A stretch of DNA of 64,000 nucleotides from Pyrodictiaceae archaeon (GTDB taxonomy: Archaea; Thermoproteota; Thermoprotei_A; Sulfolobales; Pyrodictiaceae). Position 1 is the first letter of the stretch, and each line of letters begins with the position of its first letter. Shown here piece after piece: positions 2,838 through 16,491 of this stretch. The stretch lies in NCBI GenBank assembly GCA_027036135.1, contig JALVSY010000007.1, positions 132,880-196,879 of the forward strand, given 5' to 3'. Below the pieces are notes generated by a model. The model saw nothing but the letters and a program-made list of their open reading frames with translations, was not told the DNA's origin and made no database searches. Position numbers and translations under genes: made by a program.

Positions 2838-3265
2838 TTGACACTTATGCTATTATCGCTGACTTAACGGGCCAAGTCACGCCAAAGGCTCGCCAGCTCT
2901 TAGAAGAGATAAGGCTAGGAGTTGCTGAAGGCGTTTTGCACTATCTCATAATTTATGAACTCTTTTATCATTGGAGAAGAGGCAGACTGCCCTTTAGGGA
3001 TGAAGAGGAATTACTGGATTTTGTTAACTCGTACTTCATTGTCAAGGCGCTGGATACAACGATTGCGATAAAGGCCTCGGAGGTAAAGCTTCTTGGAGAC
3101 AGATTGCTAGTAGCAGCTAGTAATCCCAGGCTTCGTAGAAGAAGACTATCAGTGGCTGATGCAACGACTATAGCTATAGCCAAGGTAGAGAATATGCCTA
3201 TAGTTACGGGAGATATTGACTTATCCTATGTCGCTAAAAATCTCGGAGTCAGTATTATATGGTAA
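2810..3265 (+). CDS. vapC: PIN-domain (VapC) toxin
   Basis: VLVDTYA, YE, SVADA, VTGD acidic motifs intact. Confidence 0.9.
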   Translation: MGEETRRVLVDTYAIIADLTGQVTPKARQLLEEIRLGVAEGVLHYLIIYELFYHWRRGRLPFRDEEELLDFVNSYFIVKALDTTIAIKASEVKLLGDRLLVAASNPRLRRRRLSVADATTIAIAKVENMPIVTGDIDLSYVAKNLGVSIIW

Positions 3266-3589
3266 TTATTATTGTGTCATATTATAATTAACTGGCGCAA
3301 CTTGTAAATTGTTATAAATTTATAAATAAATAGGATATAGGGTACCAGATGGGGAAAATCTTGCCCAGATTCGTTAAGACCCTTGATAAGGATACCTTGG
3401 ACTTAATCAAGATGCTCAAAGAGACGAGAGCCTACGGCGACTATGTTGATTATTTCAAAGAATACGATTATGAGGATATAGGTGGCTAAATTGTCCTTCA
3501 TTATCCAGGGGGACTTTATGCTTGGCGCTCTACATAGCGCTCTCTTCGTCCTAGTAATAGAATGTCCTGGGTGTGGGTGTAAGGGATTG

Positions 3590-14657: not shown

Positions 14658-15307
14658 ACCGTGTCATTAACATCCTCGTTGCCTCGGTTGGGGGCCAGGG
14701 AGGCCTAACACTCTCCAGAGTAATAGCAGCAGCCGCCGTCATGGCAGGCTACAGTGTGAGAACCGGGGAGACGCTGGGAATGGCGCAGCGCTTCGGCTCA
14801 GTAAAGAGCTACATAAGAATAGGCGTGGATACACCGGTATACTCCCCGATATTCGAGCCAGGAGAAGCAGACATCCTAGTAGGAATGGAGGTTACAGAGG
14901 CCTACCGTAACCACCACTACCTAAGACCCATGGGACTAGCAGTGCTGAGCACCGAGGAGAAGCCGCCAATAAGCGTCTCACTAGGCAAAGCAGAGCCAGT
15001 AACCATGGAGAAGCTCATAGAGGCCCTGGAGAGCCACGGGGCAGAAATCATCATAATCGATGCACCACGACTAGCTAGAGAAGCAGGCAACCCTAGGGCA
15101 GCGAACATGGTCCTACTAGGAGCAATGAACACCGCGAAGAAAATCCTACCAGACAACGCTGTAGAGGAAGCGATAAAGGCCATACTGGGAGGCAAACGCG
15201 CAGAAACCTCGATCAAGGCCTACTACCTAGGCAAGGAATACACAGAGAAACACAAACCAAGCAAAGAACATAAAGAGGACAAAACACATGCATCTGAACA
15301 AACGTAG
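14654..15307 (+). CDS. iorB: Indolepyruvate:ferredoxin oxidoreductase beta subunit
   Basis: VGGQG, GMAQRFGSV, NMVLLGA; ATGA overlap with iorA. Confidence 0.93.
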   Translation: MNRVINILVASVGGQGGLTLSRVIAAAAVMAGYSVRTGETLGMAQRFGSVKSYIRIGVDTPVYSPIFEPGEADILVGMEVTEAYRNHHYLRPMGLAVLSTEEKPPISVSLGKAEPVTMEKLIEALESHGAEIIIIDAPRLAREAGNPRAANMVLLGAMNTAKKILPDNAVEEAIKAILGGKRAETSIKAYYLGKEYTEKHKPSKEHKEDKTHASEQT

Positions 15308-15398
15308 TTTCGTTCTTTTCCCTTTTCTCTATTCACCTATCCTATACAGCGCCGGGAGCGTAAGCCTTAGCTAGAACCCCCGTAACATAGACTATACT

Positions 15399-15531
15399 GG
15401 GGTGTCCCGCCCGGCGCCCCAGAGGTCCCCGGCGGCAGTCATATGCGCACCCGACTCCTCATAAATCAGAGAGACGCTTGCCTACCATCCCGCCGCGGGT
15501 CATGCCCCTGGGGCGCCGGGTCTCGGGCCCC
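15399..15531 (-). ncRNA. Structured RNA closed by a bulge-helix-bulge motif, with K-turn and C/D-like boxes (predicted circular sRNA)
   Basis: Minus strand GGGG-CCCG-AGA-CCCGGCGCCCCAG ... CUGGGGCGCCGGG-CGGG-ACA-CCCC; 13-bp perfect stem; K-turn GGG-CAU-GA-CCC / GGG-GA-CCU; loop with CUGA, UGAGGA and AUGA. Confidence 0.7.
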
Positions 15532-15711
15532 CACAAGCTTCTAGGAGAGGCATTACGTGATAAGGCCTCAGCTTTTCCTCGGAGGAAAGGAATCTCCTCT
15601 CTTGCCTGCCAGTCCTTCGTGACTGTCTAGGATTATAGTGCTTCGCCACACGTTTTAGTGCCCCCTTTATGCCTACTGTAGTATCGAAGAAGGAGCTTAG
15701 GAGGTACCCTT

Positions 15712-16491
15712 GTGTTGCGTATTGTTAGTCTCGCGCCCGCTATTACTGAGACTCTTGTGCTCCTCGGAGCCGGTGACGAGTTGGTCGGTGTCTCTGTTTA
15801 TTGCAGGGACTATGCCCCGGGCAAGCCCGTTGTCGGTACCTATATCTCGGTTATTTGGAGGAGACTCGAGCAGGCCCGGCCCGATATCGTCTTGTTGCAG
15901 GATTATGTGCAGCGAGGCCTCTACGAGGAGCTGAGGAGACAGGGCTACCGGGCCTATATTCTCCCGCTCCCAAGCAGCCTCCACGGCGTGGCAGAGAATG
16001 TTGCAGCTGTTGGAGCCGTTACTGGGAGAAGGCTGGAGGGCCTCGTGCTTGCAGAGAAGCTTGAGGACGAGATAACCCAGCTCGGGGAGACAAAGCCGGA
16101 GAAAACTATGAGGGTTTATGCCGAGTACATCTGGCCCGACTACACCACGCGCATGAGCCCCGGGGCACTGAGCTTCGCTGACCATGCTCTCCGCTTGGCG
16201 GGCGCGGAGAACATCTACGCAGGGGAGCCACGAGCCTTTGTCGAGCCACGGCCAGAGGACGTCATCGCAGCCGAGCCAGAGGCCGTGATAGTCTCGGCCG
16301 AGAAGCTCATGAATCTAACCAAGGAGAAGTACCTAGAGAAGACCCCCTGGATAAGAAGACTAAGAGCCATAGAGGAGGACAAGCTAATAATGCTGAGAGG
16401 CGGGCCCGGCCAAGACCTAGCACACCCAGGGCCCTCGATAATCGAGACCACTAAGAAACTAAGAACACTCCTAAAGAAATACAGAACATAA
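15712..16491 (+). CDS. BtuF/helical-backbone metal-receptor family substrate-binding protein (cobalamin/iron-chelate type)
   Basis: RIVSLAPAITETLVLLGAGDELVGVS and C-terminal HPGPSII; no signal peptide visible. Confidence 0.8.
   Translation: MLRIVSLAPAITETLVLLGAGDELVGVSVYCRDYAPGKPVVGTYISVIWRRLEQARPDIVLLQDYVQRGLYEELRRQGYRAYILPLPSSLHGVAENVAAVGAVTGRRLEGLVLAEKLEDEITQLGETKPEKTMRVYAEYIWPDYTTRMSPGALSFADHALRLAGAENIYAGEPRAFVEPRPEDVIAAEPEAVIVSAEKLMNLTKEKYLEKTPWIRRLRAIEEDKLIMLRGGPGQDLAHPGPSIIETTKKLRTLLKKYRT

Follow-up and report, generated by a model that had tools for sequence, protein, structure and literature searches.

The Locus and Its Fold

The window considered here, a stretch of 64,000 nucleotides from a Pyrodictiaceae archaeon, holds between an iorB gene and a btuF-like gene a short element (15399-15531) whose minus strand folds as a long rod with an hBHBh' motif at its base. 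Both neighboring genes lie on the opposite strand, and the element has no minus-strand gene beside it. The motif, checked base by base, has an outer and a central helix of 4 bp each and two bulges of 3 nt, and the inner stem that follows has 13 perfect base pairs, or 16 without a break if one G-U is counted. The bulges, the 4-bp spacer, and the flanking helices (outer 4 bp, inner 16 bp) have the geometry of an hBHBh' substrate. The parts are given below from 5' to 3', with their conservation across the six members of a family to which we return (the window copy, G002a, G002b, G019, L031, and L030).

15532, minus: fifth G, read from the sequence, enabling slippage of the outer helix
15528..15531, minus: outer helix h, 5' strand GGGG, pairing with 15399-15402; kept in all six members, by G-U pairs in G002b
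15524..15527, minus: central 4-bp helix H, 5' strand CCCG; C-G pairs invariant in all six, fourth pair G-C in five and A-C in G002a
15521..15523, minus: 5' three-nt bulge AGA (AGA in five of six members, AGC in G002b); the predicted 5' cut presumably falls after 15522, by the position rule
15505..15520, minus: long stem h', 5' strand, 16 nt, the first 13 perfect Watson-Crick; compensatory changes at two pairs in G002b
15497..15504, minus: K-turn-like bulged strand CAU-GA-CCC; consensus kept only in the window and G002a
15431..15496, minus: interior rod; 63% mean identity, no rRNA complementarity in the search described below
15466..15469 and 15456..15461, minus: CUGA and UGAGGA within the interior-rod hairpin, read from the sequence
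15426..15430, minus: K-turn-like non-bulged strand GGG-GA; not conserved in the G019-like members
15410..15425, minus: long stem h', 3' strand, from the fold and the genome-wide BHB scan
15406..15409, minus: central helix H, 3' strand CGGG; invariant in all six
15403..15405, minus: 3' three-nt bulge ACA (ACA in all six); predicted 3' cut after 15404
15399..15402, minus: outer helix h, 3' strand CCCC; CUCU in G002b, still pairing through G-U
15404..15521, minus: predicted excised and circularized RNA of 118 nt, a rod with a 7-nt junction loop, from the BHB geometry

The interior rod carries conserved motifs of its own: GCGGGAUG(G/A)(U/C)AG, a C(U/C)GA-N4-UGA(G/U)GA hairpin, and GUCGGGUGC.

A first-pass annotation had described these helices, bulges, and the 13-bp stem, together with GGG-CAU-GA-CCC / GGG-GA-CCU, CUGA (15469-15466), UGAGGA (15461-15456), and AUGA (15442-15439), and it had assigned the BHB to one strand. 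Going over the element base by base, we located every one of these features where it had been placed. Handedness (each bulge 3' of its central-helix strand, a rule taken from the tRNA 37/38 intron of pre-tRNA) is correct on the minus strand only. That strand reaches a minimum free energy (MFE) of -87.1 kcal/mol (z -4.97), which none of 200 shuffles equaled; the plus strand reaches -78.9 kcal/mol (z -5.78). Closed as a circle, the predicted 118-nt RNA folds at -65.0 kcal/mol at 37 C and -7.8 kcal/mol at 95 C.

The same annotation had taken the element to be free-standing, and so it proved, with no tRNA, rRNA, or interrupted coding sequence found around it. ARAGORN reports no tRNA gene in the window or in the five related loci. 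The scan against known RNA families that the annotation had called for yields no match at the Rfam gathering threshold in the window, and between 15100 and 15900 at E<=10 it returns microRNA and PyrR205 noise only (PyrR205 reaches 12.7 bits, E 9.4, where gathering requires 35.6). We rejected two familiar identities. For a tRNA or rRNA intron, there are no ARAGORN genes, no Rfam matches, and flanks only 30% identical; for an H/ACA sRNA, there is an ACA, yet the 16 contiguous pairs of the lower stem leave no pocket. A limited search of open-access text found no paper describing the element. The processing machinery that had been invoked is encoded by the host genome: two tRNA_int_endo (EndA-domain) ORFs, around C30:170973 and C7:997554, together with RtcB and two L7Ae-family ORFs.

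A Small Family with Conserved Ends

Five relatives were found (L031 scores 84 bits and L030 77 bits), and across the resulting six members, identity is 90-93% in the BHB and lower stem, 63% in the interior, and 30% in the flanks. With ends so conserved and flanks so different, what is conserved corresponds exactly to the cassette that the BHB bounds, about 135 nt long, its limits being those of the outer helix. This is the pattern expected if the immediate flanks of the rod serve the BHB and nothing else, as had been suggested: conservation stops precisely where the outer helix does. The BHB itself is kept in all six, strictly in four and relaxed by A-C mismatches in two (two mismatches flanking the central helix in G002a, one next to the bulges in L030), and no copy has lost either 3-nt offset or the 4-bp spacer. 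Pairing is preserved through two-sided changes at 9 of the 46 consensus pairs, interior helices included; the covariation statistics are weak, because the family has six members only. The conserved ends and interior motifs span two genera and metagenome copies. Between the orthologous window and G002a copies, the element is 91% identical and the surrounding 1.3 kb 89%, a comparison that is weakly neutral.

Several weaker resemblances were dropped. Partial matches in G006 and on contig C16 of the window's genome lie in coding-like sequence and were put down to chance, 3-mismatch pattern matches in seven other family genomes stood at control level, and three metagenome pattern matches (best E 0.043) were likewise attributed to chance. 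Six pattern matches in GC-rich bacterial contigs were discarded as chance; the three of them scored with model R1 (L017, L019, and L024) gave nothing at E<=1. Viral contigs yielded no match to the two-half pattern, the CRISPR spacer discussed below, or the 5' 19-mer, and their nine matches to the 3' 17-mer are not family members by model R2. Phage and plasmid collections gave no match to the element.

Contexts, Apparent Mobility, and CRISPR

The family is present in 3 of 29 Pyrodictiaceae genomes and in 2 of 151 sampled in the order, with one full copy in the window's genome (G000) and a maximum of two in any genome; the complete same-genus genome G004 is without it. Its contexts are four and unrelated: the iorB/btuF gap, the neighborhood of an MBL-fold ORF, a stretch in which all 10 tested ORFs lack a Pfam match, and an integrase contig. 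In the last of these, L031, the copy lies 1.6 kb from an intact PF16795 archaeal integrase, which adjoins, on the same strand, a 3' tRNA-Ser(GCU) fragment whose matches in G003, G000, and G004 are intact tRNA-Ser genes. L031 also carries repeated operator-like palindromes, and a downstream 381-aa ORF is common to L030 and L031 (80% identity). No PF16795 integrase is found near the element in G000 or G019, PHROGs match none of 10 for the G019 and L031 ORFs, and the ORFs of L050 have weak Pfam matches only.

One of the 79 CRISPR spacers in the window's own genome matches L031 at 32 of 32 positions, G019 at 32 of 33, and the window at 22 of 22; the match covers the first 32-33 nt of the element and is followed by unlike sequence. 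Judged by these identities, the spacer is derived from a relative of the element. Integrase, att layout, and CRISPR target come together at L031 and do not do so at the window or G019 loci. Taken as a whole, the cassette appears to travel with mobile DNA that is targeted by host CRISPR.

The rarity, the unrelated contexts, the integrase-bearing element, and the CRISPR match are all additions to what the first-pass annotation had described.

G004, G001, and G003 show no DNA match to window positions 14900-16200, and the btuF-like protein is just 25-38% identical in relatives; there was no orthologous empty site to align. Four metagenome DNA runs contain no contig joint that skips the element; the X5 contigs end at its edges, which proves nothing. 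One further metagenome contig (record 14) shares only the 3' 48 nt (15393-15440). We set aside a MITE or other non-autonomous transposon, whose signature of dispersed copies with target-site duplications had been named beforehand and was looked for: inverted arms are present, but there are at most two copies per genome, and none of the six is flanked by a target-site duplication.

The K-Turn and the Question of a Guide

The rod had been read as carrying a K-turn with C/D-like boxes, and a guide function had been suggested with it. As a description of the window, the K-turn consensus stands, and it is well formed; as a feature of the family, it does not, since the consensus is kept in just two of six members (the window and G002a), reads GG for GA in G002b, and is absent from the three G019-like members (G019, L031, and L030). 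The window's K-turn may bind L7Ae in its own lineage only. The terminal boxes are not conserved: the C box is degenerate, as is the inner C-like box, the K-turn strands are CAUGACC and GGGA, and four of six members (G002b and the three G019-like copies) lack the D-like AUGA. D'/C'-like boxes are present (CUGA-N4-UGAGGA in the window and the canonical CUGA-UUUA-UGAUGA in G002a), and the D'-like box is engaged in a Watson-Crick hairpin with GUCGG, with a U-to-C change in step with the pairing.

The search for targets was for perfect matches in 16S and 23S rRNA, and the 67-nt interior has no antisense match of at least 9 nt there, whereas 151 of 200 shuffled interiors reach one. A 15-nt genomic match was rejected as a target because it lies same-sense inside an ORF and is therefore chance, and L031, L050, and the window show no local complementarity. 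Archaeal C/D sRNAs are half the length of the window element. With boxes that are not conserved and no rRNA antisense match of at least 9 nt, a guide role is without support, and the element is probably not a methylation guide.

What Is the Cassette?

What, then, might a gene be that consists of little more than a splicing motif and the rod that it encloses? The reading to which we lean, and lean tentatively, at somewhat less than an even chance, is that of an RNA cassette that has spread horizontally among Pyrodictiaceae and their mobile elements, predicted to be cut by EndA and closed into a circle by RtcB. An EndA-cut motif at the base of a hairpin would probably give a small circular RNA product. 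The element would be transcribed on the minus strand from a promoter of its own, the crenarchaeal splicing endonuclease would cut within both 3-nt bulges, and RtcB would seal the product as a circle of about 118 nt, rod-shaped and with CGGGACA as its 7-nt junction loop; the two "exon" stubs left over would have no other role. Our best guess is that such a circle would be a heat-stable RNA working on behalf of the mobile element, perhaps by controlling copy number or the interaction with the host, or else a selfish passenger. Counting against this reading are the near-invariant ends, the slipped fold, and the chance-level BHB geometry set out under the alternatives below. In the six copies, too, there is no conserved promoter at a fixed distance and no clear oligo-T terminator, and a bacterial-type promoter and terminator scan, a method ill-suited to archaea, returned nothing.

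A bolder version would have integrase-bearing elements of hyperthermophilic Pyrodictiaceae hijacking host EndA and RtcB by means of a self-contained BHB cassette to make a heat-stable, rod-like circle that serves the element, with CRISPR countering them and the chromosomal copies captured or left behind. No earlier case of a circular RNA that depends on EndA and is encoded by a mobile element would then be known; we regard this version as possible, if on balance doubtful.

It is unlikely, to our minds, that the element acts as DNA, its BHB offset being incidental: an imperfect inverted repeat at which a mobile element recombines or attaches, a hairpin for replication or packaging, or a non-autonomous transposon. 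EndA reads shape. Near-invariant ends (90-93%) go beyond what it should need and could instead reflect a sequence-specific DNA-binding protein, and arms so much better conserved than the 63% interior resemble protein-recognized repeats. The distribution is sporadic and the contexts are unrelated, one copy sits on an integrase contig, and the spacer and the metagenome piece, covering the first 32-33 nt and the 3' 48 nt, look like att-type partial copies. Even the wobble pairs of the BHB and the lower 11 bp are balanced (4 G-U vs. 3 A-C), so that they leave the strand undecided. Across the sense structure as a whole, however, G-U outnumber A-C by 23 to 7, and the consensus energy is -62.9 kcal/mol, compared with 18 G-U, 15 A-C, and -50.7 kcal/mol for antisense; the sense strand folds better by 12 kcal/mol, and its MFE is the lower in five of six members. 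The interior helices covary, and the 3-nt offsets and 4-bp spacer found in every member are needless for a simple inverted repeat. Against a DNA-level role, too, are the single copy in G000, the lack of target-site duplications (0 of 6), and the lack of an integrase near the G000 and G019 copies.

Equally hard to credit is a structured RNA, small and linear or acting in cis (e.g., an antisense or stabilizing hairpin), that is no EndA substrate, its BHB being a by-product of a slipped GC-rich stem. A rod-like family with conserved interior motifs would suit it, and the energetics lend it something: the MFE favors a slipped register in which the 3' bulge is not clean, and the strict BHB register lies above it by 3.7 kcal/mol at 37 C and 1.3 kcal/mol at 95 C, because the five-G run permits the helix to slip. 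At a looser threshold (h2 >= 8), BHB geometry in the window's own genome gives 284 matches vs. 240-270 in three shuffled genomes, which is chance level. One BHB-like site, C30:218205-218324, lies inside 23S rRNA, where we rejected it as an intron because the sequence is contiguous (and 94-99% identical) in five of five relatives; a site so well formed and yet unspliced tells us that geometry alone is no proof of an EndA substrate. The window element, on the other hand, ranks first among the 11,665 BHB-like sites of our genome-wide scan (right-handed hBHBh', 4+4+4 bp, G-U allowed, intron 20-300 nt). For a linear RNA, it would be odd that the two bulges scarcely vary in sequence (ACA in 6 of 6, AGA in 5 of 6), that G-U pairs rescue the outer helix of G002b despite sequence change, and that conservation ends exactly at that helix.

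Less probable still is a decaying relic, the core of an archaeal intron without its ORF or an old mobile-element remnant with no present function. The element is rare, patchy, and single copy per genome, and G002a has A-C mismatches within its BHB, all as decay might leave them; but a relic should not keep ends at 90-93% and interior motifs across two genera and metagenome copies amid random flanks, with helices maintained by compensatory changes. As for a circular C/D-box-like guide or L7Ae scaffold directing 2'-O-methylation, the original proposal, the window's K-turn, the D'/C'-like boxes, and the encoded L7Ae-family genes speak for it, but with a K-turn in two of six members, a degenerate terminal C box and a D-like box absent from four of six, a D'-like box paired in a covarying hairpin, no perfect 16S or 23S rRNA match of at least 9 nt, and twice the usual length, we think it very improbable.

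Known Systems and What the Cassette May Mean

Besides tRNA introns and rRNA precursors, only a few RNAs are known to undergo BHB cleavage with circularization, and if the EndA-cut, RtcB-closed cassette that we favor is real, it would join them while resembling none exactly. In archaeal pre-rRNA, the 16S and 23S processing stems carry BHBs, EndA cuts both bulges, and a ligase circularizes the excised part (PMC12558985, PMC7714728). As there, a long helix with a basal BHB brackets the RNA to be released; here, the cargo is a 118-nt rod outside the rRNA operon, sporadic and mobile-linked rather than universal. The tRNA-Trp intron of Haloferax, Pyrococcus, and Halobacterium is a C/D box sRNA that is BHB-excised and circularized (PMC12558985), and the cassette is likewise a predicted BHB-excised circular small RNA with K-turn-type motifs, but whereas that intron sits in a real tRNA whose exons are the main product, the cassette has no tRNA, unconserved flanks, and no rRNA guide target that we could find.

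The circularly permuted SRP RNA gene of Thermoproteus, which matures through BHB cleavage and circularization (PMC4731332), offers a stand-alone noncoding RNA gene with the BHB-dependent maturation that we predict here. SRP RNA is universal, permuted, and of known function, whereas the window element has no match among known RNA families. In Haloferax, EndA substrates other than tRNA and rRNA have been described along with the circles that come from them (PMC7714728), among them the BHB intron in the HVO_1309 5' UTR (PMC7714728), and the cbf5 pre-mRNA intron of Crenarchaeota is another such substrate (PMC2738675). The window element is predicted to be of this kind, but those introns interrupt an mRNA, and it has no adjoining minus-strand gene. 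On the mobile side, SSV-type and pNOB8-type integrative elements that target tRNA genes have an integrase and a tRNA fragment in a border/attP layout (PMC3293823), which L031, with its intact PF16795 integrase by a same-strand tRNA-Ser fragment, resembles. The cassette itself lies 1.6 kb beyond the integrase and is not the tRNA att site, and the passages of PMC3293823 on that layout describe no such cassette.

Should the element turn out to be a DNA repeat only, the finding would be minor. The cassette is compact (about 135 nt) and predicted to be stable at 95 C, and the CRISPR spacer match offers a rare direct hint of such an RNA element meeting host immunity. A gene made of a BHB and its cargo alone, moving between genomes, would make of the splicing machinery a general maker of RNA circles, possibly for mobile elements.

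Structure and position of the element

Read base by base on the minus strand, window positions 15531 to 15399 run GGGG-CCCG-AGA, stem, returning stem, CGGG-ACA-CCCC, the hBHBh' form of the bulge-helix-bulge (BHB) that the archaeal tRNA splicing endonuclease (EndA) cuts, and all of the coordinates in the first-pass annotation are correct. Over the BHB stand 13 perfect Watson-Crick pairs, part of an uninterrupted run of 16 that includes one G-U, followed by GGG-CAU-GA-CCC/GGG-GA-CCU, a GC helix and then an interior in which CUGA (15469-15466), UGAGGA (15461-15456) and AUGA (15442-15439) lie where they had been placed. Folding energy is -87.1 kcal/mol for the minus strand (z -4.97; 0 of 200 shuffles equally good) and -78.9 kcal/mol for the plus strand (z -5.78).

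The strict BHB register is not that of minimum free energy (MFE). A fifth G allows the outer helix to slip and to pair with the middle C of ACA; the penalty for forcing the BHB register is 3.7 kcal/mol at 37 C, falling to 1.3 at 95 C. In our models the precursor would retain its BHB stem at 95 C, and the predicted 118-nt circle is rod-shaped, its junction lying in a 7-nt loop.

Features around the element
ending at 15307, plus strand: IorA-like and POR-gamma (IorB-like) open reading frames (ORFs)
15531-15399, minus strand: the element
starting at 15712, plus strand: Peripla_BP_2 ORF

Because both neighbors are on the plus strand, the element is antisense to each and interrupts neither. The earlier view that no tRNA or rRNA exon and no interrupted coding sequence surrounds it holds: ARAGORN finds no tRNA gene in the window, and Rfam 15 gives no match at the gathering score; relaxing the limit to E 10 brings in nothing but noise.

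A family bounded by the BHB

BLAST against 41 related genomes found a copy at the orthologous locus of G002 (G002a; element 91% identical to the window copy, surrounding 1.3 kb 89%), another in G002 on a contig of 2.1 kb (G002b; 79%) and one in a different genus (G019; 69%); a 24-nt match in a further genome, G006, was dropped as coding-like sequence. With a covariance model (R1), 3 of the family's 29 genomes were positive, with these same four copies; a six-sequence model (R2), run on a sample of 151 genomes from the order that did not include G002, found the element in 2. Both scans scored only part of the first-look candidates, so that weak copies may have escaped them. The element is absent from G004, a complete genome from the same genus. 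A pattern built from the two halves of the sequence recovered both G002 contigs from the genome-contig collection and added two members from metagenome contigs, L031 (84 bits) and L030 (77 bits).

Across the six members (alignment A3), identity is 90.3% in the 5' BHB half and lower stem, 92.7% in the 3' half and stem, 62.9% in the interior and 30.4% in the flanks, the last over few columns. Given so sharp a drop outside the BHB-bounded segment, what was inherited or moved is exactly that cassette, outer helix included. Its six copies occupy four unrelated genomic settings.

Genomic settings of the six copies
setting 1: between iorB and btuF; the window copy and G002a
setting 2: adjoining an MBL-fold ORF; G002b
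setting 3: a G019 stretch (L026, G019:C1:996000-1015999), with Pfam matches in 0 of 10 and PHROG matches in 0 of 8 ORFs tested, and no tRNA
setting 4: the context shared by L031, which carries an integrase, and L030

The stretch around the G019 copy may be an uncharacterized integrated element. L031 is 3.4 kb long. Its left end is the 3' part of a minus-strand tRNA-Ser(GCU), and ARAGORN calls no whole tRNA there; positions 41-99 match tRNA genes in 29 of 29 family genomes, and at the matching sites G003, G000 (the window's genome) and G004 carry an intact tRNA-Ser(GCT). An intact PF16795 archaeal integrase adjoins the fragment on the same strand, followed by two ORFs that match neither Pfam nor PHROGs and, scattered between genes, two operator-like repeat families of five copies each (370-2337 and 423-2895), one of them a 29-nt palindrome of the type AGAGGGTTGAAAC...GTTTCAACCCTCA. 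The cassette comes after the repeats, at 3094-3231. The layout is that of the att border or attP of tRNA-targeting integrative elements, as described in PMC3293823. The ORF convergent with and downstream of the L030 copy is 80% identical to its counterpart in G021:C102, the continuation of L031.

Several observations sit beside these. The operator-like repeats resemble the sites that plasmid or viral regulators bind. Contig C102 of G021 ends at 2296, 82 nt short of the cassette position in the 100%-identical L031; G021 may therefore hold an unassembled copy, although the model search found none. No PF16795 integrase lies near the cassette in G000 or G019. Elsewhere in G000, C16:202707-203387 encodes a protein homologous to the L031 integrase (30% identity; PF16795 scoring 136 bits), and C16:215540-215902, at a distance of 12 kb, is a homologue (38%) of an ORF of the L031/L050 element; a related integrated element may reside there, in which no BHB cassette was found.

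The sole other match to the element in G000 is an exact 22 nt at C7:579352-579373, within a CRISPR spacer. The array (C7:579247-579660; L002 1396-1790), outside the window, has six 25-nt repeats, the distal one degenerate, and other arrays built on this repeat lie on contigs C7, C9, C36 and C40. One of the 79 spacers extracted, 53 nt long, matches the family: 32/33 to G019 (E 1.4e-11), 32/32 to L031 and 22/22 to the window copy. Its last 10 nt are unlike every member, and so the protospacer would have been a further variant or a truncated copy. Crenarchaeal crRNAs carry an 8-nt handle, and oriented by it this one would be complementary to the sense RNA of the element, a point of little weight. 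A 190-nt metagenome piece (run X5, record 14) holds only the element's 3' 48 nt, with both sides unlike. Such partial copies, together with the near-invariant arm sequences, favor one of the main rival readings, a repeat that serves a mobile element at the DNA level; overall we consider it unlikely.

Strand and quality of the BHB

The RNAalifold consensus of the six members is a 46-pair rod, with double changes that keep the pair at 9 of the 46; in G002b two stem pairs are altered on both sides (G-C to U-G, C-G to G-C), and the outer helix is retained through two G-U pairs (GGGG/CUCU). Over the BHB and 11 lower pairs the wobble tally is even (4 G-U versus 3 A-C). When the whole consensus structure was predicted for each strand separately, the sense strand gave -62.9 kcal/mol and 46 pairs (23 G-U, 7 A-C) and the antisense -50.7 kcal/mol and 39 pairs (18 G-U, 15 A-C); single-sequence MFE favors sense in five of six. 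There is thus moderate support for an RNA whose template reading would follow the minus strand of the window, where the BHB is right-handed, as had been proposed. The copies show neither a promoter at fixed distance nor a clear oligo-T terminator; each has AT-rich, TATA-like words 30-75 nt upstream, which is weak evidence.

How good is the BHB? We scanned both strands of the whole G000 genome (2.2 Mb) for right-handed hBHBh' geometry (three helices of 4 pairs each, counting G-U, and an intron of 20-300 nt), and the window element is the best of 11,665 matches. At looser settings the geometry is cheap: inner helices of at least 8 pairs number 284 in the real genome versus 240, 270 and 270 in three block-shuffled ones. 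A BHB-like arrangement within the 23S rRNA gene (C30:218205-218324, L033 ~3149-3268; 5+4+8 pairs, no G-U, 103-nt "intron") is a warning against BHB calls from geometry. We rejected it as an intron; it is contiguous and 94-99% identical in five of five relatives and is therefore native rRNA structure. Since such matches are common and the strict register is not the MFE, the case for the element's BHB rests on exceptional quality and conservation, not on geometry alone. (Contigs C3, C10, C11, C25 and C38 of this genome are short and very AT-rich and contain simple repeats, the rest being GC-richer; they may be contaminants or mis-binned sequence.)

The bulge ACA is found in all six members and AGA in five (AGC in G002b). 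A strict BHB is present in four; in G002a two of the pairs next to the central helix are A-C, and in L030 one is. Another main rival, a structured RNA that stays linear and unspliced, we consider unlikely; that the element is a relic we find improbable.

The interior

A K-turn had been proposed over the stem. Its consensus, a 3-nt bulge and then GA opposite GA, stands in the window copy and G002a and does not extend to the family: G002b has GG at the site, and G019, L031 and L030 have the 3-nt bulge without G-A pairs. Binding of L7Ae, the K-turn protein, may be a lineage-specific extra. The window's CUGA-N4-UGAGGA is a conserved segment of the form C(U/C)GA-N4-UGA(G/U)GA, canonical in G002a. 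In the RNAalifold consensus, however, this segment forms an ordinary hairpin with GUCGG, a pairing that the U-to-C change fits. The suggested guide function finds no support, the 67-nt interior having no perfect antisense match of at least 9 nt in 16S/23S rRNA (151 of 200 shuffled interiors have one), and a C/D guide is very improbable.

Discussion

The machinery is encoded in the genome. Two ORFs of G000 (186 and 182 aa) carry the tRNA_int_endo domain, as is expected for a broad-specificity heterotetramer, and the ligase RtcB and two L7Ae-family ORFs are also present. The abstracts and passages we consulted describe no such cassette. In its predicted action it resembles the stems of rRNA processing, the sRNA that is an intron of tRNA-Trp, the permuted SRP RNA gene product of Thermoproteus and the intron in the 5' UTR of HVO_1309. 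It is a member of none of these, lacking exons, a known cargo and an Rfam family. The analysis establishes the conserved unit, its BHB, the signals of mobility and the CRISPR match, whereas that the element is transcribed, cut and circularized, and that it has any function, is inferred. Our preferred reading, held tentatively and at a little under even confidence, is a self-contained, horizontally spread cassette: a minus-strand transcript would be produced, cut in both bulges and circularized.
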